Shown here piece after piece: positions 13,085 through 52,305 of a DNA stretch of 64,000 nt (positions are counted from its first letter, which is position 1; every line of letters starts with the position of its first letter). This DNA is from Lutisporaceae bacterium. GTDB taxonomy: Bacteria; Bacillota; Clostridia; Lutisporales; Lutisporaceae. Below the pieces are notes generated by a model that had not been told where the DNA came from, did no database searches, and saw only the letters and a list, made by a program, of their open reading frames with translations. The position numbers were made by a program, and so were the translations under genes. The stretch spans positions 295,515 to 359,514 of the forward strand of contig JBMNHZ010000009.1 of the NCBI GenBank assembly GCA_050950645.1, given 5' to 3'.

Positions 13085-13323
13085 CAACTGAATAAATGAT
13101 GCACGGATCGGGAAGAGTAAATCAGAAAGGCATACAGAGAGGAACCTTCGGCGGTTGAGAGAGGTTTCATGATACGCTGATTGAAGTGCACCCGTGAGCA
13201 CCGGAGAGGAAGCTGAATGATTGTAAAGTAGTATTCTCCGGCGGATTACCGTTAATTCTTGAGAGTATCAAAAGAGTGGAACCGCGGAATTGCCCGCCTC
13301 TTTAAGAGGCGGGTTTATCTATT
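13085..13323 (+). promoter_or_regulatory. T-box riboswitch leader, Cys specifier (UGC), controlling cysS
   Basis: Specifier-loop context ttgaagTGCaccc (UGC at 13187-13189). Conserved T-box sequence aaagaGTGGAACCGCGg at 13270-13287. Terminator gcccgcctc-tttaa-gaggcgggt plus a T-tract at 13292-13325. Possible promoter with TTGACA at 13033-13038. Confidence 0.85.
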
Positions 13324-13371
13324 TTGACACATACCCCAAGCTTAATATTTATGTATAGGAAGGTGTTAGAA

Positions 13372-14766
13372 ATGAAGCTTTATAACACAATGACAAGGAA
13401 AAAGGAAAAGTTTGAACCTATTACTCCGGGAGAAGTAAAAATGTACTCCTGCGGACCGACAGTCTATAATTTTTTCCATATAGGAAACGCAAGACCCTTC
13501 ATAATATTTGACATTTTAAGAAGGTATCTTGAATATAGGGGTTACAAGGTAACCTTTGTACAGAATTTCACTGATGTTGACGATAAAATAATCAAGAGGG
13601 CGAAGGATGAAAACACGACAGAAAAAGAGGTGTCCGACAGGTTCATACAAGAATACTTTAGAGATGCGGAGGCATTAAATATAAGAAAGGCCGATTATCA
13701 TCCCAGAGTAACAGAGCACATAGATGAAATAATAGACATAATAAAGAGGCTGGAAGCAAATGGCTTTACTTATACTGTTGACGGAGACGTATACTATGAT
13801 ACTTCAAAGTTTGTTGAATATGGCAAGCTATCCAAACAGAATCTCAATGAATTGGAAGCAGGCGCCAGGATTGATGTAAATGAAGTTAAAAGGAACCCCT
13901 TTGATTTTGTGCTTTGGAAGGGGCAAAAGCCCGGAGAACCTGCATGGGAAAGCCCCTGGGGCATGGGTAGGCCGGGTTGGCACATAGAGTGCTCTGCCAT
14001 GTCTATGAGGTATTTGGGGGAGACTATAGATATCCATTCCGGAGGGCAGGATCTTATATTTCCTCATCACGAGAATGAAATCGCGCAGAGTGAAGGAGCT
14101 ACAGGAAAGCCTTTCGCAAGGTATTGGCTGCATAATGCATTCCTTAATATTAATAATGAAAAGATGTCCAAATCACTGAACAATTTTTTCACAGTCAGGG
14201 ACATTGAAGAAAAATTCGATCTGGAGGTTTTCAGGCTTTTCATGATTTCTGCTCATTACAGGAGTCCCTTGAATTTCAGTGCCGAGCTCCTGGAACAGGC
14301 AAAGAGTGCTTTAGAAAGGTTATATAATGCAAAAAATAATCTTATATATCTTCTGGATAAGGCACAGGAGAAGCCCTTGACACAGGAGGAGGAGAATTTT
14401 AAAGAAACTCTTTCAGGATACAGGAGCAAGTTCAATGAGTCTATGGATGATGACCTGAATACTGCCGATGGATTGGCTGTTATATTTGACATGGTAAGGG
14501 ATATCAATTCCAACGTCAAAGCAGAATCCTCCAGGGTACTGGTGAAAGCATCCTATGATATGCTTATGGAGCTATTGGGAGTGCTGGGCTTGCTTTATAA
14601 GAAAGAAGAAAGCCTGGATACGGAAATAGAGAAATTTATAGAGGAAAGACAGCAGGCAAGAAAAGAAAAGAACTGGGCTTTGGCCGACAAAATAAGGGAT
14701 GATCTAAAGGCACAGGGAATAATTCTTGAAGATACCCCCGAGGGAGTAAAGTGGAGAAGGGTGTAA
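13372..14766 (+). CDS. cysS: Cysteinyl-tRNA synthetase
   Basis: HIGH-type motif (FFHIGNARP) and KMSKS are present. ATG 13372 after aggaaggtg is preferred; the track ORF starts inside the T-box terminator. Confidence 0.9.
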
Positions 14767-30924: not shown

Positions 30925-31060
30925 TAATGATGGAATGTCCGAGATTGAAACGAATATATACCGTAGACAGTAGGTTGGTTCAGACCGTAATTTCCTACCG
31001 AGGTTTGCCATAAAGCTATTATGACCTCTCTATGTCTGCGGAGAGGTCTTTTGATTTTAT
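30925..31060 (+). promoter_or_regulatory. rplJ (L10) leader with an attenuator-type terminator
   Basis: 238-nt untranslated gap before rplJ. It contains the hairpin gacctctc-tatgtctgcg-gagaggtc followed by ttttgatttt (31023-31058). The position matches the L10 leader known in Firmicutes. A TTGACA at about 30908 may be its promoter. Confidence 0.5.
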
Positions 31061-32080: not shown

Positions 32081-32232
32081 ATTTAATCAAAATGTCTCCT
32101 TTGTTGAATACATGGTAAAAGACAAATACTGCAATTCTTGTACTACCTATCAGACTCCAAAGTAGTAAAACGAATCCAGACAGACATTACATTCTGATGG
32201 TTTTTATTTATATTCATAGGATAACAGAAAAA

Positions 32233-32263
32233 CAGGGCATCGGAGCCGAACTCCGGTGCCCTG
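32233..32263. terminator. Bidirectional terminator at the 3' end of the symporter gene
   Basis: cagggcatcggag-ccgaa-ctccggtgccctg, with an A-run upstream and ttttg downstream. On the minus strand it is followed by tttttc. Confidence 0.65.
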
Positions 32264-32282
32264 TTTTGTTAATCATGTAAGA

Positions 32283-33680
32283 TTATATTTGTTTATCGGT
32301 CTGAACTTTGGTGGTACCACCCTGCGTCATAAGGCTGGCAATTATGTAAGCAATACCGGAAGTGATGATGGGGAACACGGTTGGAACAGGGAAGGATATG
32401 CCTGCCCAAGAAATCAGCACTGTGGAGACACCTACTATCGAAGCGGCGGTAGCGCCAATGGAATTACCCTTCTTCCAGAATATGCCGCCCACGAAAGGGA
32501 TAAAGCATGCCGCAGCTAGGAAGGAATATACGGAGTTTAGCAAGCCCAGAATGCTGGAAGAGGACAGAGCCAGAATAGTAGATACGCCCATGAAACCGAT
32601 GTTAACGCCTAGAGTTATCTTCTTCAGTTGAGCCTCATCAGGAGTCTTCTTCAGCACCCCTTGCCAGATGTCTCGGGTCAGAACGGTGGACATAGTGATC
32701 AGACCACAGTCGATGGTAGACATAACAGCAGCCAGAACGGCGGCAATGATCAGGGCGCAGACAATAGTAGGGAGCTGATTCATGATAACCATGAAGAAGG
32801 CGTCGCTGCCAGAAACGCCATACTTATAGGCACCGAAGGAGCCGATGAACGCGGGCATCAGTGCTAGGGGGATCATAACTAAGAAAGACAGATAACAGGA
32901 AATGCGGGAAGTTTTGGCGCTCTTGGCGGAGTTAATACGCTGATATGTAGGCTGGTCGGTAACCATTCCCAGTAGCAGAGGTATCATCATACCTGCAAAA
33001 CCTGCAGCTGTCATACCGCTGAAGTCCAGTGCGGAAGAAGCCAGAGAGCCAGTCTGAATAGCGGATTGCATTTCACTTACTGCACCCCTACTGATCAAGA
33101 TTACAGTGGTTAAAACCAGACCGGCGATTATGACGGCGGTTTGGATCACGGAGGTGGCAAAGGCACCCCACAGACCGGACATCTGGGAGTAGAGCAAAAC
33201 GACCACGGCGATGGAGATGGCGCCTACTGTACCGGACAGACCCATAGCCTCGAAAAGAGCTTTACCTGCCATAATCTGACCGGCGATCAAACCAATAGAG
33301 GAGATTGCCGTGCTCAGGTCGTAAATAGTACCAGGCACGGGGTTGTTGTAGCGCTTTATTGTGTAGTCAGCCAGAGACATATAGCCGCCGTTGTAAATAA
33401 AGTTGTTCAGAAAAATAGCAACCATCAGACAGCTGAGTGCGCATGCTATGCCATAAGCGCTACCCGCCATTCCGACCACCGAACCCTCTGCGGCACCGCC
33501 GACTACGAAGCCATTGCCAATCTGACCACCGATGGCGCCGCCCATTAGCAGGATAACGCCTCCGGAACGACCCATACTCAGATAACCCTCAAAGGTCTCA
33601 GAGCGATGACGACCGACCCAGCCGATGGCAACCATGGCTGCAAAGTAAATAACCAGGACAACAACGATAGTAATAATCAT
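32283..33680 (-). CDS. Sodium:solute symporter family (SSF) transporter
   Basis: Polytopic membrane protein with an SSF-like N-terminus (IYFAAMVAIGWVGRHRSETFEGYLSMGRSGG). ATG 33680 after aaaggatgg is preferred; the track ORF extends 45 codons further upstream. Confidence 0.75.
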   Translation of the reverse strand: MIITIVVVLVIYFAAMVAIGWVGRHRSETFEGYLSMGRSGGVILLMGGAIGGQIGNGFVVGGAAEGSVVGMAGSAYGIACALSCLMVAIFLNNFIYNGGYMSLADYTIKRYNNPVPGTIYDLSTAISSIGLIAGQIMAGKALFEAMGLSGTVGAISIAVVVLLYSQMSGLWGAFATSVIQTAVIIAGLVLTTVILISRGAVSEMQSAIQTGSLASSALDFSGMTAAGFAGMMIPLLLGMVTDQPTYQRINSAKSAKTSRISCYLSFLVMIPLALMPAFIGSFGAYKYGVSGSDAFFMVIMNQLPTIVCALIIAAVLAAVMSTIDCGLITMSTVLTRDIWQGVLKKTPDEAQLKKITLGVNIGFMGVSTILALSSSSILGLLNSVYSFLAAACFIPFVGGIFWKKGNSIGATAASIVGVSTVLISWAGISFPVPTVFPIITSGIAYIIASLMTQGGTTKVQTDKQI

Positions 33681-33971
33681 AAATACCATCCTTTCTACTG
33701 CGCTGCAATAAGCAGCGCGGCATTTCTTTGTAGTGAGATTGTGTGGAACATAGATATTTCTGTCGTGTGCCTCAATAAAACGATACGGTTCATACCTTGG
33801 AACAGGTGAGATCATAATTATTATAACTCATCAGTTACGAAAAGTGATTTCAAATTTCTGATGAGATATTTCGAAATTCTGATTTGCAATTGTAATAATG
33901 TGTATTGTTTATTACAATAAGAAGTGTGATAATGACAAACACTGTGTTTTAGGAGAAAGGACGGCGAATTT

Positions 33972-35270
33972 ATGACAGTAAACGAAGACTTTATCCGAAA
34001 TATGGAGCAGAATCTTTCCTACTGGAAAGCACATATTTCAGTTCACGATATGTTGACCAGCGAACTTGCTTACAGCTTGATTTACGACAATATCCGGTCG
34101 GACAAGGTGAGCGAGGCAATGGGGACGGTGGGCCTTGATGTGCTGCCAAATCGTTTTTTTCTAATCCAGGTAGATGATTATATGAATTATTCCAGTAATC
34201 TGCATATAACCCAGGAATTTTTTCAAAAACCGGTCCTGGTCGATATGCTGCGTACCTGCATGAAAATGATTAAATTGAAGGGATTTGTCGCCAACCTGAT
34301 CGGAATGGATAGAATCATTTGTTTTTTGTGCTTTGAGGAGCATGAGACGGAAGACCCCGGTGTATATTTGCGCTCTGTTGCAGAGACATTTAAAGAATAT
34401 GTACGGCATCGAAGTACATACACTATTTCTGTGTGTATAAGTCGACGCTGCACGCAACTGGATCATTACGCCAAGCTATACCCTCTCATGGATTTAGCCC
34501 TTAGCAAAAGTTATTTTTCTAATAAGGAGTTCAGTATACTGTTGGACGAAATGGAGGAGCAAAAGGAACTCAAAACAGTGTATGTGGATTTAAACGCGCG
34601 TTATCCCGAATTTATTGCCTCCATAGCACGGCGCAATCGGGAGCAGTTTGAACAAGTTTTGCAGGAAATGATTCAGGCGCTACTGGAAACTCAATCACGT
34701 CCCAGACGAGTGCGTATGGAAATTATCCGCCTACTCCAACGGGTAGAAGATTACTGTATTCGGTGCGGGGTTCCGGAAAAACAGATGCGTGACTATAATG
34801 AAACCGCAATGAATAAGGTACTTTCCTGCAGTTTTATTGCTGATACCAGAAATTATCTTGAGGAATATTACGAACAGGTGACCGTCATGCTCGAACGATA
34901 CAGCTATGAATGGGAATACTCCTTTAAATCATTAGTTGAAGAATATATATCCGTACACTTTCATGAAAAGATTCGCTTGGGAACATTGGCATATATTATG
35001 GGCTACAGTGAAGGCCACTTTGCTCGAATTTTTCGAAAACAATTTGGAATAACCTTTGTACAATACCTGACACAGTATAGAATCAACCAGAGCAAACGAC
35101 TATTGATCGAGACTCACATTCCTGTGGAACAGATTGCTTTTCAGGTTGGAATCGGTAGCTATAGTTATTTTTGCACTTGCTTCAAGAATGCTTGTGGTTT
35201 AACACCAAGCAAGTACCGAAAACATTACTATCACAGAGCAGGGAAACAGAACATCAAAATTATGAAATAA
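33972..35270 (+). CDS. AraC-family transcriptional regulator
   Basis: 432 aa with a C-terminal double HTH (LAYIMGYSEGHFARIFRKQFGITFVQYLTQYRINQSKRLL...IAFQVGIGSYSYFCTCFKNACGLTPSKYR). Divergent from the symporter gene. Confidence 0.8.
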   Translation: MTVNEDFIRNMEQNLSYWKAHISVHDMLTSELAYSLIYDNIRSDKVSEAMGTVGLDVLPNRFFLIQVDDYMNYSSNLHITQEFFQKPVLVDMLRTCMKMIKLKGFVANLIGMDRIICFLCFEEHETEDPGVYLRSVAETFKEYVRHRSTYTISVCISRRCTQLDHYAKLYPLMDLALSKSYFSNKEFSILLDEMEEQKELKTVYVDLNARYPEFIASIARRNREQFEQVLQEMIQALLETQSRPRRVRMEIIRLLQRVEDYCIRCGVPEKQMRDYNETAMNKVLSCSFIADTRNYLEEYYEQVTVMLERYSYEWEYSFKSLVEEYISVHFHEKIRLGTLAYIMGYSEGHFARIFRKQFGITFVQYLTQYRINQSKRLLIETHIPVEQIAFQVGIGSYSYFCTCFKNACGLTPSKYRKHYYHRAGKQNIKIMK

Positions 35271-35439
35271 ATAATCAAGATACCAAATATATCTCATGTA
35301 AATAATATGATAGAATAGCATCGTGAAACAATTAGATTCAGTCAGGAACAGGTGAAAAATCACAATCAACCGTCAGTTCGCAGGGCGGCAAGTGGAACAG
35401 TCGTCTATTTTGCGAGTGACAAAATGTTAGGAGGCAATT

Positions 35440-37401
35440 ATGTCAATCTATCCCCATTTGTTCGCTCCATTGCACATCCGAAATTTCTACATCAAAAACC
35501 GCATTGAATCAGCACCGATTTCACACAGTGGCGGTGTTCCCTTTTACACTCGTGAGGCTCAGGAGATGTACAGTACCTTTGCGAAAGGTGGTGTTGGCAT
35601 TGTGACCCTGGGAGAGGCCGGAGTCCACAGTCAGACGGGACATGCCCATCCCACCATGCCTCATCTAGATGATACTACCGTTTTGCCCGGCTTAATCCAG
35701 ACTGTGGATGCCATCCATAAATGGGGCGCACTGGCATCCATTGAGTTGACCCACTCGGGTAACCGCGCTAAAGGTTCTCTCCTGACCGAGGGCGGCTTCG
35801 TAATGGGTCCTTGCGCCATGGAGACCAACCTCTACGGAGATCCTGTTGTGGAAATGGACGAGGACATGATGAATATGGTGGCGGACGCTTTTGCTGAGGC
35901 CGCCTATCTGGCCAAGTTTGCCGGCTGCGATATGATTAACATTCATGGTGGGCACGGCTGGATCATCAGCCAGTTCCTATCGGATTTGGATAATCATCGT
36001 ACCGATCAGTATGGAGGCTGCATTGAGAATAAGGCCCGATTCCCTCTGATGATTGTGGACCGCATCCGTGAAAAATGCGGAAACGACCTAATCATCGAGT
36101 TTCGCCTCAGTGCAGAAGAGGGCATTCCGGGTGGTATCACCATTGACGAGACGGTAGAGTTTGCCAAGCTGTTGGATGGAAAGGTGGATATTATCCATGT
36201 ATCAGCTGCCACCTTCCATGAAACTGCCACCGCTTCTCGCATGTTCCCCACAGTGTTTTATCCCAGAGGCTGTAATGTAGAAAACGCAGCAAAGATCAAA
36301 GCCGTGACGAAAAAGTCCTATGTTTCCGTGGTAGGGGGTCTGAATGATCCCGACCATATGGAGTCTATCCTCGCGGACGGCAAGACCGATATGGTCGTTG
36401 TGGGTCGTCAGATGATGGCCGACCCCAACTGGCCTAACAAGGCAAAAAAAGGCAAGGCTGACGAGATTATTAAATGTATTCGTTGCGAAACCTGTATAAG
36501 CGCCGGATTCATTCCCCATGTTCCCTTTTCTTCCGGTGTGTTGCGCTGCTCTGTTAACCCCTCATGGGGGCGCGAGTACGAAAACACCCGCAAAGAAGAT
36601 AAGCCTGAGCAGCTGAAAAAGGTTCTGGTTGCCGGCGGCGGCCCAAGTGGCATGGAGGCCGCTATTACTGCAGCTCGCCGAGGACACAACGTTATTCTAT
36701 GCGAGAAGAGCGACCATCTGGCTGCCAATCTGGATTATGCTAAACAGATTTCCTTCAAGCAGGATATAGTGGCATTTCTAAAGTCCATGGAAGTCAACGT
36801 ACGTCGCACCCCCAATCTGGAGGTTCGCCTGAACACTGAGGTTACCGAAGAACTGATTCAAATCGAGGGACCGGATGTTCTGATTGTGGCTTGTGGTGCA
36901 GAGCCTATACTGCCTCCGATTCCCGGCTTGGATCAGCCAATCGTTCACCATATTACCGATTTGTATAAGAAGAATGTGAAAGCTGGACAGAAAGTCGTAA
37001 TCATCGGCGGCGGCCTGGCAGGCTGTGAAGAGGGTCTAAGTCTTGCCTGGGAGGGCAAGGATGTCTCCATCGTGGAGATGAAACCCGAGCTGGCAAAGGA
37101 TGCCCCATATATCCATTGGAAGCATTTGCTGAGCAAGTTAAGCGAGTCTGTGACTTCCTATTGCTCGGCTAAAGTACAGGCCATCGAGGCGGAGGGTGTT
37201 CGCATTGTGGATGCTGGCGGTAATGAACGCAAGCTGGAAGCTGATACCGTTTTCATTGCCACCGGTATGCGTGCCACCTCGGAGCGTTATGATACTTGGC
37301 ATGACCTGGTGGAGGATATAATATTCGTGGGTGACTGTCGTCGCAGCTCCAAGATCTTGGATGCTATGCGTACCGGCTACTGTGCAGGTATGACTATCTG
37401 A
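35440..37401 (+). CDS. Enoate-reductase-type flavoenzyme (OYE-like FMN barrel + 4Fe-4S + FAD/NAD(P) domain; 2-enoate reductase / BaiCD / FadH family)
   Basis: 653 aa. N-terminal Oxidored_FMN-like barrel (INIHGGHGWIISQFLSDLDNHRTDQYGG), Cys cluster CIRCETC...C, and dinucleotide fold VLVAGGGPSGMEAA. Confidence 0.75.
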   Translation: MSIYPHLFAPLHIRNFYIKNRIESAPISHSGGVPFYTREAQEMYSTFAKGGVGIVTLGEAGVHSQTGHAHPTMPHLDDTTVLPGLIQTVDAIHKWGALASIELTHSGNRAKGSLLTEGGFVMGPCAMETNLYGDPVVEMDEDMMNMVADAFAEAAYLAKFAGCDMINIHGGHGWIISQFLSDLDNHRTDQYGGCIENKARFPLMIVDRIREKCGNDLIIEFRLSAEEGIPGGITIDETVEFAKLLDGKVDIIHVSAATFHETATASRMFPTVFYPRGCNVENAAKIKAVTKKSYVSVVGGLNDPDHMESILADGKTDMVVVGRQMMADPNWPNKAKKGKADEIIKCIRCETCISAGFIPHVPFSSGVLRCSVNPSWGREYENTRKEDKPEQLKKVLVAGGGPSGMEAAITAARRGHNVILCEKSDHLAANLDYAKQISFKQDIVAFLKSMEVNVRRTPNLEVRLNTEVTEELIQIEGPDVLIVACGAEPILPPIPGLDQPIVHHITDLYKKNVKAGQKVVIIGGGLAGCEEGLSLAWEGKDVSIVEMKPELAKDAPYIHWKHLLSKLSESVTSYCSAKVQAIEAEGVRIVDAGGNERKLEADTVFIATGMRATSERYDTWHDLVEDIIFVGDCRRSSKILDAMRTGYCAGMTI

Positions 37402-37545
37402 TAATATGTAAAGCATGGTTAAGGAAAAACTACACAACGTAAATGGTTGCGCTTACTCACCCAGAACATAACAAAAATACGATTTATATACCATTATGGA
37501 AATAGGATCGGAAAAAGAACAAAGAAACAGTAGGGAGGATCAGAT

Positions 37546-39075
37546 ATGAACAAAGTAATTATTACAGGGCAAAATCTGACGCTAGAAGAACTAGTAGCTG
37601 TTTCTAGGAATGATGTACAGGTTGAACTGTCTGAAGAAGCAAAGGAAAATATCTCTGAATCCAGAAAAGTTGTCGAAGACCTGGTTGAAAGCAATGCAGT
37701 CGTTTACGGCATCACGACCGGTTTTGGAAAATTTAGCGATGTTTCTATTTCTCAGGATGAATGCAAGAAACTCCAGAGGAATCTGATTATTACACATTCC
37801 GTTGGCGCAGGTGAACCTTTTTCGCGGGATGTCGTAAGAGGTATCATGCTTCTGAGGATAAACAGCCTTGCAAAGGGATTTTCGGGTGTCAGATTGGAAG
37901 TTGTTGAAACTTTAATTGCATTTCTGAATAAAGGCGTCACCCCGCAGATACCGCAACAGGGTTCATTGGGCGCAAGCGGCGATCTGACTCCTCTATCGCA
38001 TATGGTTCTGCCGATGATTGGTCTGGGCGAAGCAGAGTATAAAGGCACTGTAATGAGTGGTGCGGAGGCAATGGAAAGGGCTGGCATTCCGGTTATTGAA
38101 TTGGTTGCAAAAGAGGGCCTTGCCCTGATTAATGGTACACAAGCTATGACCTCTGTTGGAGCATTGACTCTATACGACGCATTAGAATTGCTAAAGGTTG
38201 CAGACATTGCAGCGGCACTCAGCTTTGAAGCAAATCATGGTGTTATTGACGCTCTTGATGAAAGAGTGCATGCCATCAGACCCCATGCTGGTCAAATGGA
38301 TACAGCAAAGCTGCTTGCCCGATTGCTTAAGAACAGCAGGAATGTTACCAAGCAGGGTGAAATTAGAGTGCAGGATGGCTATTCACTGCGTTGTGTCCCC
38401 CAGGTTCATGGTGCCAGCAAGGATATCATGGATTATGTTAAATCGAAAGTCGAAATTGAAATCAATTCAGTTACGGATAACCCCATTATATTTAAGGAAA
38501 CCAAAGAGGGTATTTCCGGCGGTAACTTCCATGGTCAACCGATGGCACTGTGCTTTGATTTTCTTGGAATTGCGCTGTCAGAACTTGCCAATATTTCTGA
38601 AAGACGGATTGAAAGAATGGTCAACCCGGCAATCGGAGGATTCCCTGCATTTCTGGTCAAAAATGGAGGTCTGAATTCCGGCTTTATGATTGTACAATAC
38701 TCTGCAGCCGCGCTTGTTTCTGAAAATAAGGTTTTGACACATCCTGCAAGTGTTGACAGCATTCCGTCTTCTGCAAATCAGGAAGACCATGTCAGCATGG
38801 GTACAATTGCCGCAAGAAAGGCGAAAGATATTATGAAGAATGTCAGACGTGTACTTGCTATGGAACTGATGTGTGCATGCCAGGCGATTGATCTTGGTGG
38901 AAACAAGGGACTCGGCGACGGCACAAAGAAGGCATACGATGTAATTAGAAATGTCTGTGCAACACTGGAAGAAGATCGTCCGCTATACGGTGACATTAAC
39001 CAGTGCGAAGCTACTATCGTTGATGGAAGCTTGATTGCAGCTGTTTTGAATGAGATCTCTGAGACGCAGTTCTAA
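37546..39075 (+). CDS. hutH: Histidine ammonia-lyase (MIO-dependent aromatic lyase family)
   Basis: 509 aa. YGITTGFGKF, the MIO-forming triad in GSLGASGDLTPLSH, and a HAL-type His in LQRNLIITHSVGAG. Confidence 0.8.
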   Translation: MNKVIITGQNLTLEELVAVSRNDVQVELSEEAKENISESRKVVEDLVESNAVVYGITTGFGKFSDVSISQDECKKLQRNLIITHSVGAGEPFSRDVVRGIMLLRINSLAKGFSGVRLEVVETLIAFLNKGVTPQIPQQGSLGASGDLTPLSHMVLPMIGLGEAEYKGTVMSGAEAMERAGIPVIELVAKEGLALINGTQAMTSVGALTLYDALELLKVADIAAALSFEANHGVIDALDERVHAIRPHAGQMDTAKLLARLLKNSRNVTKQGEIRVQDGYSLRCVPQVHGASKDIMDYVKSKVEIEINSVTDNPIIFKETKEGISGGNFHGQPMALCFDFLGIALSELANISERRIERMVNPAIGGFPAFLVKNGGLNSGFMIVQYSAAALVSENKVLTHPASVDSIPSSANQEDHVSMGTIAARKAKDIMKNVRRVLAMELMCACQAIDLGGNKGLGDGTKKAYDVIRNVCATLEEDRPLYGDINQCEATIVDGSLIAAVLNEISETQF

Positions 39076-39102
39076 ATTCTAATATTTAAAATACGATATA
39101 AG

Positions 39103-39143
39103 GAGTATGCTCATCATGTAATTGTGATGAGCATACTCTGTTT
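39103..39143 (+). terminator. Terminator after hutH
   Basis: 14-bp perfect stem gagtatgctcatca / tgatgagcatactc followed by tgttt. Confidence 0.6.
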
Positions 39144-39311
39144 AAATTGACGTATGTAACGGTCAAAATTCCGAATTCCGACATTTGGACAATGAACACT
39201 ATTGCGCTTGTATACTCGTGGGAAATAACTGAAAAATATTGTATTTGAATTGAAACATTTAGTATTACTGTGAAAGTGGAAGATTAAAAGTTAGTTCAGT
39301 TTGAAGATAAA

Positions 39312-50065: not shown

Positions 50066-50959
50066 ATGCAAATCGGGAGTATATTAAACGAAAAGTATCG
50101 GATTGACAAATTTTTAGGCAAAGGTGGGACAGCTTCTGTTTATTTATGTACCAATATTGAAATTGGAAACAGGTGGGCTTTGAAGCATATTCCGCCGGAC
50201 AAAACAAATGAAATAGCAATGTCGGAGATTGAAATACTTAAGAGACTGTACCATCCCAGCCTGCCAAGGATTGTTGATGTATTCCGCAATAAACAGGGTA
50301 TTTATATTGTCGAAAGCAATATAGAGGGTATCCCCATGGACAGGATGCTGAAAAAGCATGGCAGCTTTGGACTTGAGAAAGTCACAGACTGGTTTATGGA
50401 GCTTTGTGATATATTGAAATACCTGCACAGCGTCAAGCCAAGGCCTATTATATATAGGGATATGAAGCCGTCAAATATAATACTTACACAGGGCGGCAGA
50501 CTGGTACTGGTTGATTTCGGGGTATCCCAGGAGTACTTTGAGTATGAATTAAGGGACAGTGTTCTTGCGGGTACGAGTGCGTATGCAGCACCGGAGCAGC
50601 TGATAAAAGGGGGAAAGACAGATCAGAGGACAGATATTTACAACCTGGGTGCAACAGTGTATCAAATGCTGTATGGCAGGCTGGCAGGCGGCACAAATGA
50701 CAAAGCTGGTTCTATCAAAGGCAAGGCAGCAGCGAAGATGGGCAGTATAATTTCCAAGTGTATGGAGAACAGGCCGGAGGACAGATACCAGAGGGTAGAA
50801 GATATACAGAAAGAGCTGGAGGCTGTAAAGAGTATGCTGGCAGCGGGCAAGGTAAGGCAGGGAATTGTTTTTAAGCTTGAGATGGCTTCAATAGCAGCAT
50901 TGTCGGCAGTCTCATATGCTGCTGCGGTACTGGGCGCATTGTATTCGACGTCGAAATAA
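50066..50959 (+). CDS. Hanks-type Ser/Thr protein kinase with a C-terminal membrane anchor
   Basis: GKGGTASVY...WALKHI (ATP-binding Lys), catalytic loop YRDMKPSNIIL, DFGVS, APE. The C-terminal hydrophobic tail is MASIAALSAVSYAAAVLGALY. No PASTA repeats. Confidence 0.85.
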   Translation: MQIGSILNEKYRIDKFLGKGGTASVYLCTNIEIGNRWALKHIPPDKTNEIAMSEIEILKRLYHPSLPRIVDVFRNKQGIYIVESNIEGIPMDRMLKKHGSFGLEKVTDWFMELCDILKYLHSVKPRPIIYRDMKPSNIILTQGGRLVLVDFGVSQEYFEYELRDSVLAGTSAYAAPEQLIKGGKTDQRTDIYNLGATVYQMLYGRLAGGTNDKAGSIKGKAAAKMGSIISKCMENRPEDRYQRVEDIQKELEAVKSMLAAGKVRQGIVFKLEMASIAALSAVSYAAAVLGALYSTSK

Positions 50960-51113: not shown

Positions 51114-52305
51114 ATTTTAGGTAAATTGTAAAATGAAGTGTCGCGATAGATAACAAAAGTGTCCCATAGGGACCAACTCAGCTATAATGTTAAGTGACCA
51201 AACCCAACAAAAAGGAGAGAGGTATATGGGACACTTACATTGTAGCAAGATTGAGCATAAAAATAAACACTTAAATTACAGGGAACGGCTGAGAATAGAA
51301 ATAATGCTTAAGGAAGGTGCCGGCACAAAGGAAATTAGTGAAATAATTGGTTGCAGCCAGAGGACTATACAAAGAGAGCGAAAACGCGGTTTAATAAAAC
51401 AAATTAATTCGAACTTGGAATATTACCAGGTATATGACGCAGATTATGCCCAGAACGACTATATAGCAAAACATGAATGTAAGGGGCCAGGACTAAAAAT
51501 AGGGCACGATCATAAATTGTGCGAGTATATAGAAGAAAAAATCAAAGCAGGCTGGTCGCCGGACATAATTGCAAAAGAGATTAGAAAAAAGGCAGAATTC
51601 AAAGATACAAGAATATGCACAAAGACAATATACAACTATATAGATAAGAATGTTTTTCTAAATATCAGTTATAAGGATTTAATATATGGCAGGTATCGAA
51701 AGAGAACAGGTACAGGAGTAAACAGGCCATCTTACAAGAATATAAAAGGTCGTAGCATAGATGAAAGGCCATCTAGTGTTGATGAACGACAAGAAGTGGG
51801 ACATTGGGAAATGGATTTAGTGTTAGGCAAGAAAGGAGGAAGCAAAAGCGTCTTACTTACAATGACAGAACGAGTAAGCAGACGTGAAATCATTCGAAAA
51901 CTGCCTGATAAAAGCCAAGAAAGTGTAATAAAGGCGCTGGATGTAATGGAACGGCAAATGGGGCGAATTAAGTTCAAGGATACATTTAAAAGCATAACAG
52001 TTGATAATGGTTCAGAGTTTTTAAACAGTTCGGAAATGGAGAGGTCTTGCCTTGGTAAGAAAAGAACAAGAACGATGGTATTTTACGCACACCCATATAG
52101 TGCATATGAACGAGGGAGCAATGAGAATATGAACCGGATGATACGCCGCTTTATACCCAAAGGAGCAGATATTGGTAAATATAGTAAACAGGAAATAAAG
52201 CGCATCGAAAATTGGTTAAACAATTATCCAAGGAAGATCCTGGATTACTATACTCCACTTGAAGCCTATAATCAGGTTGCTTAACAGAGGCGACATTTAA
52301 TGTTG
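51114..52305 (+). mobile_element. IS30-family insertion sequence (ends uncertain by about 10 bp)
   Basis: One IS30-type transposase ORF. A 19-bp direct repeat caatttatgggcataccaa lies at 51095-51113 and 52306-52324. Inverted repeats gtaaattgtaaaatgaagtgtcgc (51121-51144) versus gcgacatttaatgttgcaatttat (52290-52313); the right one overlaps the repeat. Confidence 0.65.
51226..52284 (+). CDS. IS30-family transposase
   Basis: N-terminal HTH (ISEIIGCSQRTIQRERKRG) and a DDE core (HWEMDLV ... TVDNGSEF ... HPYSAYERGSNEN). ATG 51226 follows aaaggagaga. Confidence 0.85.
   Translation: MGHLHCSKIEHKNKHLNYRERLRIEIMLKEGAGTKEISEIIGCSQRTIQRERKRGLIKQINSNLEYYQVYDADYAQNDYIAKHECKGPGLKIGHDHKLCEYIEEKIKAGWSPDIIAKEIRKKAEFKDTRICTKTIYNYIDKNVFLNISYKDLIYGRYRKRTGTGVNRPSYKNIKGRSIDERPSSVDERQEVGHWEMDLVLGKKGGSKSVLLTMTERVSRREIIRKLPDKSQESVIKALDVMERQMGRIKFKDTFKSITVDNGSEFLNSSEMERSCLGKKRTRTMVFYAHPYSAYERGSNENMNRMIRRFIPKGADIGKYSKQEIKRIENWLNNYPRKILDYYTPLEAYNQVA

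Follow-up and report, generated by a model that had tools for sequence, protein, structure and literature searches.

The clostridial 2-enoate reductases (EC 1.3.1.31; e.g., Clostridium tyrobutyricum ER and C. sporogenes FldZ) form, together with FadH, BaiCD and NCR, a class of flavoenzymes of about 650-665 aa that combine an old yellow enzyme (OYE) barrel, a 4Fe-4S cysteine motif and a C-terminal FAD/NAD(P)H domain and that perform NAD(P)H-dependent reduction of activated C=C bonds. An enzyme of this architecture and size, of which the same chemistry is expected, is encoded next to a histidine ammonia-lyase (HAL; HutH) gene at 32233-39143 of a 64-kb stretch of DNA from a Lutisporaceae bacterium, alongside genes for an SSF-family Na+/solute symporter and an AraC-family regulator. 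We refer to the whole 64-kb stretch as the window and give coordinates as positions in it, unless they carry the handle of another locus (e.g., L028). A second described system that bears on this locus is UrdA of Shewanella and gut bacteria, a fumarate-reductase-like enzyme (FAD_binding_2) with covalently bound FMN, which converts urocanate to imidazole propionate, the reaction that an earlier note on this DNA had proposed for the locus. The UrdA catalytic domain has no homology in the window reductase, in which PF00890 covers only a 40-residue Rossmann stretch (395-434) and a Pfam search detected no FMN_bind domain. A third is the canonical Hut operon, represented in L039 by hutH-hutU-hutI-ftcD headed by a HAL 78% identical to that of the window; the two lyases have in common the Thr-His pair at the selectivity site and the ASG triad that gives rise to the 4-methylidene-imidazole-5-one (MIO) group, whereas hutH of the window and of its two closest lineages is solo.

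We found that the four genes (Table 1) fall into two homology blocks with different relatives, and we consider it probable that these are two independent functional units side by side rather than one cassette. The history that we favor is one in which a horizontally acquired import-and-reduce module landed by a native solo hutH. The earlier note had instead joined all four genes in a single 'import, deaminate, reduce' module. Its open reading frames are all present where it placed them and profile searches bear out each of its four family calls, but the grouping does not hold, for the trio of symporter, regulator and reductase is conserved without HAL, and hutH is a separate unit with its own leader and terminator.

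Two homology blocks and their relatives

The first block, Unit 1 (32278-37404), runs from the stop codon of the symporter to three bases past that of the reductase and is 89.4% identical at the nucleotide level to contig L028, the closest metagenomic relative (93% protein identity for the reductase), which carries the same trio. The flanks of L028 are unrelated to the window: upstream lies the end of a chemotaxis-receptor gene and directly 3′ of the reductase a canonical terminator, and the contig stops ~270 bp past the reductase, such that its downstream gene is not visible. The second block, Unit 2 (37474-39145), consists of the hutH coding sequence, preceded by a 72-nt leader and followed by a terminator hairpin. 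It matches, at 85-87% identity, hutH units that stand solo in two different, unrelated contexts, one in L035 and one in L125 (Clostridia bacterium BRH_c25). These two relatives have ~200 nt upstream of hutH in common, of which the window retains only the proximal 72 nt. We read hutH as inherited within the window's lineage. The junction between the units (37405-37473) holds neither a terminator nor a consensus promoter, no hairpin was detected at 37402-37545, and the 145-nt gap between reductase and hutH shows nothing that folds like a terminator (fold z-score -0.55); the consensus promoter scan likewise gave no match upstream of hutH in L035 and L125. Rfam detected no riboswitch or leader in this gap (31-41 kb at E <= 1 and the whole window at the gathering score), its matches being, in all, a T-box at 13095, an L10 leader at 30943 and three tRNAs.

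The neighborhood of the reductase was scanned over ±10 kb with one genome per GTDB species, giving 19 loci. At 17 of them the reductase is 72-80% identical to that of the window over all or most of the protein; the remaining two hold a 70%-identical C-terminal fragment and a 39%-identical paralogue. By tblastn and clustering of open reading frames, conservation among the neighbors is limited to the symporter (70-77% identical) and the AraC regulator (52-58%). The full trio is found in about 12 of the 19 loci, the others being partial or cut by contig ends, and its carriers include C. symbiosum (three assemblies, with a 78%-identical reductase orthologue), C. transplantifaecale, Blautia, an Oscillospiraceae member, Anaerobutyricum, Lawsonibacter and a Synergistaceae metagenome-assembled genome (MAG). 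At none of the 19 genome loci is there a HAL homologue within 10 kb of the reductase, and a further set of 82%-identical reductases (L029-L034) has unrelated genes downstream, among them sigma-factor and excisionase-like genes, and again no HAL. The four-gene arrangement was seen only in contigs with an identical HAL; 13 of these are on record, and it is present in all six that were read (L022-L027), one four-gene contig belonging to a MAG named Gracilibacteraceae bacterium. Thus, the HAL-reductase pair, whose lack of conservation elsewhere the earlier note had named as a refutation of its idea, was seen for this reductase clade in one species only. Since symporter and reductase move together, the likeliest cargo of the former is the substrate of the latter rather than histidine. 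No CoA ligase or CoA transferase travels with the module, which suggests that this substrate is a free acid.

The module itself varies among its carriers. Many copies display a second reductase, 44% identical to the first, between the symporter and AraC genes (L001:6211-8160; also L003, L004, L012, L014, L015 and L030), and some have a second SSF paralogue (31-35% identical), such that the window module, with one reductase, is a reduced form. Upstream of the symporter, L028 features what looks like the remnant of a reductase C-terminus (L028:~230-390). In the 82%-identical copies of the module (L029:6562-8515), the reductase is followed 3′ by genes for a sigma-70 region-4 protein, an HTH_17 excisionase-like protein and an HTH_36 protein; these are typical of integrative/conjugative elements and hint at the mode by which the module moves.

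Base composition also separates the units. The G+C content at third codon positions (GC3; Table 1) of the 35 other genes in the window is 0.411 ± 0.050, against which only the symporter and the reductase are outliers (roughly +2.7 to +3 standard deviations), the AraC regulator and HAL being within the native range. Hence, the compositional anomaly excludes the lyase, whose GC3 is native-like. The label 'foreign-GC cassette' in the earlier note is therefore borne out for two of the four genes only: its four counts of G+C in 60-nt lines are exact (58.3, 63.3, 50.0 and 38.3%), but the lines counted are local peaks, and the mean of the block is only 46.2% vs. 41.9% for the window. Several 1-kb intervals over housekeeping genes also reach 46-47%. 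Both hairpins that had been proposed to bound the block are present, yet each belongs to a different evolutionary segment. The one at 32229-32267 is the intrinsic terminator of the minus-strand symporter gene, could act in both directions and lies outside the segment shared with L028, where homology begins at 32278; the hutH terminator lies inside the unit kept in L125, homology to which reaches 39145.

The reductase and the ammonia-lyase

The window reductase displays an Oxidored_FMN domain (PF00724; residues 7-342, 199 bits) and a Pyr_redox_2 domain (PF07992; residues 462-616, 98 bits). The FMN barrel carries an HGGHGW motif at residue 169, a cysteine motif predicted to bind a 4Fe-4S cluster (CxxCxxC...C, as CIRCETC...RC) begins at residue 346 between the two domains, and GxGxxG motifs lie at residues 399 and 523. 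Its best PDB matches are 2-naphthoyl-CoA reductase (6QKG) and FadH (1PS9). This agrees with the assignment in the earlier note to the OYE/4Fe-4S/FAD class and not to UrdA-like enzymes. Within the class, it scores below every NCBIfam equivalog cut-off, namely 419 bits for BaiCD (cut-off 825), 374 for the long form of BilR (750) and 372 for the mycofactocin-associated OYE (793). Neither does pairwise identity mark it as an orthologue of the characterized enoate or cinnamate reductases: it is ~30% identical to the FldZ-like enzymes of L121 and L123, whose nearest named relatives are annotated as '2-enoate reductase' or 'cinnamate reductase'. FldZ-type enzymes occur near fld-type dehydratase genes, as in L121, whereas the clade of the window reductase occurs with the SSF symporter and AraC regulator. 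From sequence comparison, we accordingly place the enzyme in an orthologous, uncharacterized clade of its own that travels with a dedicated symporter and regulator. Full-text searches of the literature found no characterization of this clade and no urocanate reductase of the OYE/enoate-reductase type.

A separate set of loci does link hutH to a reductase of this class. We first encountered it in L044, where an OYE/4Fe-4S/FAD reductase lies between hutH and hutU, and it recurs as a cluster coding for a BTAD-AAA-TPR regulator, HutH, a Gate-domain transporter, a 665-aa 2-enoate reductase and HutU (L044, L120, L123 and L124; Table 1). The reductases of these four clusters are mutually 74-95% identical, and their HutH and HutU proteins score above the NCBIfam cut-offs; L044 has a frameshift in the reductase gene and L120 a split hutU. 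Like the window, these clusters show a linkage, here genuine and recurring, of hutH with an OYE/4Fe-4S/FAD enoate reductase, but they differ from it in reductase subfamily, in their Gate/nucleoside-recognition transporter, in their BTAD-AAA-TPR regulator and in the presence of hutU. Their reductase belongs to the classical FldZ/'cinnamate reductase' clade, being 78% identical to the L121 enzyme encoded beside an fld-type dehydratase cluster and only 30% identical to that of the window. We regard it as a better candidate than the window enzyme for a urocanate reductase unrelated to UrdA. No description of this cluster was found in full-text searches.

The lyase is predicted to be a true HAL (HutH) and not a phenylalanine (PAL) or tyrosine (TAL) ammonia-lyase. 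It reaches 679 bits with the hutH model TIGR01225 (cut-off 539) and 707 with NF006871 (cut-off 524), well above its scores with TAL, PAL and aminomutase models, the next-best profile being that of tyrosine aminomutase at 452 bits (cut-off 501). It carries GSLGASGDL and LQRNLIITHSVGAG, of which the former aligns with GSVGASGDL of Pseudomonas putida HAL (1GKM); the MIO triad ASG is conserved in 118 of 120 close homologues. The segment LIITHSVG aligns with LVLSHAAG of the P. putida enzyme, with Thr in place of Ser. We take the selectivity position to be Ser-His in P. putida HAL, His-Leu in TAL and Phe-Leu in PAL. The call of HAL over PAL/TAL in the earlier note is thereby upheld by the TIGR01225 score and the His at the selectivity position. 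The Thr-His motif to which it drew attention is indeed there, but it is merely the norm of the HAL clade, in which 119 of 120 members have it, including the HAL of the canonical operon in L039. The window HAL groups among the canonical HutH proteins of Clostridia. In line with the earlier note, which had reported hutU and hutI to be missing, tblastn with L039 queries detected no homologue of hutU, hutI or ftcD in the window; for comparison, hutU adjoins the HAL gene in 40 of 85 sampled HAL loci.

The closest HAL homologues, 91% (L035:10001-12602) and 77% (L038:10001-12570) identical, are followed 3′ by a conserved pair of small genes for a cyclophilin-like protein (133 aa) and a Cucumopine_C-domain protein (PF18631; 161 aa), with a LysR regulator and an ABC transporter near the trio; the window hutH lacks these small-gene partners. 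Cucumopine is an opine of histidine and 2-oxoglutarate and, on that ground, the trio of HAL, cyclophilin-like and Cucumopine_C proteins in L035 and L038 may handle a histidine conjugate.

Proposed scenario and competing readings

In the scenario that we propose, Unit 1 would have been acquired horizontally and would act as a self-contained 'sense, import, reduce' module. In it, the AraC-type activator would drive the divergent promoters, the SSF symporter would take up, with Na+, an activated alkene from outside the cell, for which a free alpha,beta-unsaturated monocarboxylate is the likeliest candidate, and the OYE/4Fe-4S/FAD enzyme would use NAD(P)H to reduce the C=C bond of this compound, thus disposing of reducing equivalents or detoxifying it; the substrate is probably not urocanate. 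Unit 2 would be a stand-alone hutH, the product of which is predicted to deaminate histidine to urocanate and ammonia. The module would have inserted ~70 nt upstream of the hutH leader, displacing the distal upstream region of hutH and leaving the reductase gene without a terminator. Given this missing terminator and the loss of the distal upstream region, hutH is probably transcribed at least in part by read-through from the reductase gene, and co-transcription of the two is plausible from the arrangement. Such an operon fusion could be neutral or could be selected for coupling.

The same fusion underlies the strongest alternative, namely that after it hutH and the reductase came to work together in this species, converting histidine via urocanate to imidazole propionate as a UrdA-independent electron sink. 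Several points count in its favor and against a bystander role for hutH. Urocanate, the product of HAL, is itself a 2-enoate, and the class to which the neighboring enzyme belongs reduces 2-enoates; the particular clade is uncharacterized. Reductase gene and hutH share a strand, and the 145 nt between them contain neither a terminator nor a recognizable hutH promoter, while L028 retains the terminator after its reductase, and the loss of that terminator combined with that of the distal hutH upstream region has the look of an operon fusion that might have been favored by selection. Moreover, hutH has no hutU or hutI for company in the window and is also solo in the sister lineages, and the recurrence of hutH with an enoate reductase of another subfamily, flanked by hutH and hutU in L044, L120, L123 and L124, indicates that the class can be recruited to histidine catabolism. 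Finally, the abundance of C. symbiosum, a carrier of the module, correlates with serum imidazole propionate in MetaCardis, which is a correlation only (PMC7676231). Set against these are the restriction of the pairing to one species, in a reductase clade that otherwise never adjoins HAL; the co-evolution of symporter and reductase, a sign that the substrate is imported; the mere 30% identity between the hut-embedded reductases and that of the window; and the differing composition and history of the two units. Cultures also count against it: O. symbiosa (C. symbiosum) fed 13C-histidine and unlabelled urocanate consumed both, converting them through the Hut pathway into short-chain fatty acids, but formed no imidazole propionate (PMC13320830, a 2026 preprint). 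The strain cultured was MSK.7.21, whose module content and expression were not checked. We therefore hold such cooperation to be unlikely, and the proposal of the earlier note that the locus is a new route to imidazole propionate is not supported, as the reductase clade shows no HAL linkage elsewhere and C. symbiosum was negative in culture (PMC13320830). We think it similarly doubtful that the insertion made a new operon in which the reductase, from a clade widespread in gut Lachnospiraceae, C. symbiosum among them, accepts urocanate from the co-transcribed hutH to yield imidazole propionate independently of UrdA, with the two-domain clostridial enoate reductases as a second, overlooked family of urocanate reductases, although the hut-embedded clusters of L044, L120, L123 and L124 would be in keeping with such a family.

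Two further readings dispense with this coupling or with the boundary between the units. In one, the reductase would be a steroid or bile-acid enone reductase (of the BaiCD, BaiH or 5-beta-reductase type) or a bilirubin reductase, and hutH would be irrelevant to it. The best NCBIfam matches, BaiCD and long-form BilR, point in that direction, yet both scores are about half of their cut-offs, and the unrelated clostridial enoate reductase of L123 scores alike, such that the matches reflect the shared fold only. As its dedicated partner the reductase has an SSF Na+ symporter and not a bile-acid transporter, and a 5-beta-reductase role is further disfavored as C. symbiosum WAL-14163, of a species carrying the module, did not reduce progesterone (PMC12238238); we deem this reading very unlikely. 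In the other, the whole 6.9-kb block from symporter to hutH would be a single foreign island from one transfer. Its mean G+C content exceeds that of the window, and it lies within a 21-kb stretch that parts rplL from rpoB and in which a Tad pilus locus and an IS30-like transposase gene are likewise situated. The island, taken as 32233-39143, was nonetheless rejected: GC3 is not uniform along it, that of hutH being native (0.398), homology to L028 ends 3 nt past the reductase stop codon, and that of hutH to L035 and L125 begins 70 nt further on and includes its own terminator, giving two separate blocks. A repeat search of 31.9-39.6 kb detected no direct or inverted repeats flanking either unit. 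A single transfer thus appears highly improbable, and we return to an import-and-reduce module that landed by a resident hutH as the preferred account.

The microbial metabolite imidazole propionate has been linked to type 2 diabetes, atherosclerosis and neurodegeneration; to our knowledge, current gene-based predictions of its producers all rest on urdA. If a second family of urocanate reductases did exist, it would alter these predictions and could help explain why species that lack urdA, such as C. symbiosum, track with serum imidazole propionate. UrdA itself can be a genomic neighbor of the lyase, as urdA co-localizes with hutH in some Burkholderiaceae (PMC13320830). At the window locus, the evidence points against a new route and toward a mobile import-and-reduce module with hutH as a bystander; its reductase belongs to a known class of enzymes, and the locus is an ordinary, if tidy, juxtaposition of genes. 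What the comparison delimits is an SSF/AraC/reductase module widespread in gut and digester bacteria, and the hut-embedded enoate-reductase cluster offers a much better target for the hypothesis of urocanate reduction without UrdA.

Gene content and surroundings

Table 1. Features of the block at 32233-39143 of the window and coordinates of the hut-embedded reductase clusters in other loci
Feature	Coordinates	Strand	Remarks
Terminator-type hairpin	arms 32229-32245/32251-32267	-	17-nt arms, 94% complementary, 5-nt loop; A-run before, T-run after
SSF-family Na+/solute symporter	32283-33815	-	longest open reading frame 510 aa; PF00474, 106 bits; GC3 0.548
Divergent intergenic region, symporter/AraC	33681-33971		part of an 89%-identical block common to L028
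AraC-family regulator, 432 aa	33972-35270	+	HTH_18/HTH_AraC at residues 320-430; GC3 0.443
Reductase, 653 aa, OYE/4Fe-4S/FAD two-domain flavoenzyme	35440-37401	+	GC3 0.560
Junction between the two units, 69 nt	37405-37473	+	no match in L028 or in the hutH relatives L035, L038, L039 and L125
hutH leader, 72 nt, with ribosome-binding site	37474-37545	+	also precedes solo hutH in L035 and L125
Histidine ammonia-lyase (hutH), 509 aa	37546-39075	+	MIO triad ASG in GSLGASGDL; Thr-His selectivity position; GC3 0.398
hutH terminator hairpin	39102-39139	+	arms 39103-39116/39125-39138, perfect; 14-17 bp, weak T tail
hutH-transporter-reductase-hutU cluster	L123:1963-12061; L124:2315-9348; L044:4896-14979; L120:948-4964		

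Orthologues of the symporter are 457-469 aa long (465 aa in L028), for which reason its true start is probably M46 at 33680, giving a protein of 465 aa. The intergenic region that would then separate it from the AraC gene is presumed to be the regulatory region of the module and features promoter-like matches at 33789-33918, which are consensus matches only. The N-terminal ~320 aa of the AraC regulator gave no match in Pfam.

The block lies in an unusual setting. Although rplL and rpoB are usually neighbors, in the window the end of rplL (32033) and the start of rpoB (53046) are ~21 kb apart. Between them (32034-53045) lie the reductase module and hutH together with a Tad/Flp-type pilus locus (39473 to about 48400), a gene for an FHA/DUF6382 protein, a Ser/Thr kinase gene (50066-50959) and an IS30-like transposase gene (51187-52284), and the interval appears to be insertion-prone. 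Farther away, the left end of the window codes for a UPF0236-family protein (PF06782; 684-2147) of uncharacterized function, and the T-box leader (13095-13304) lies 5′ of cysS (13324-14766).

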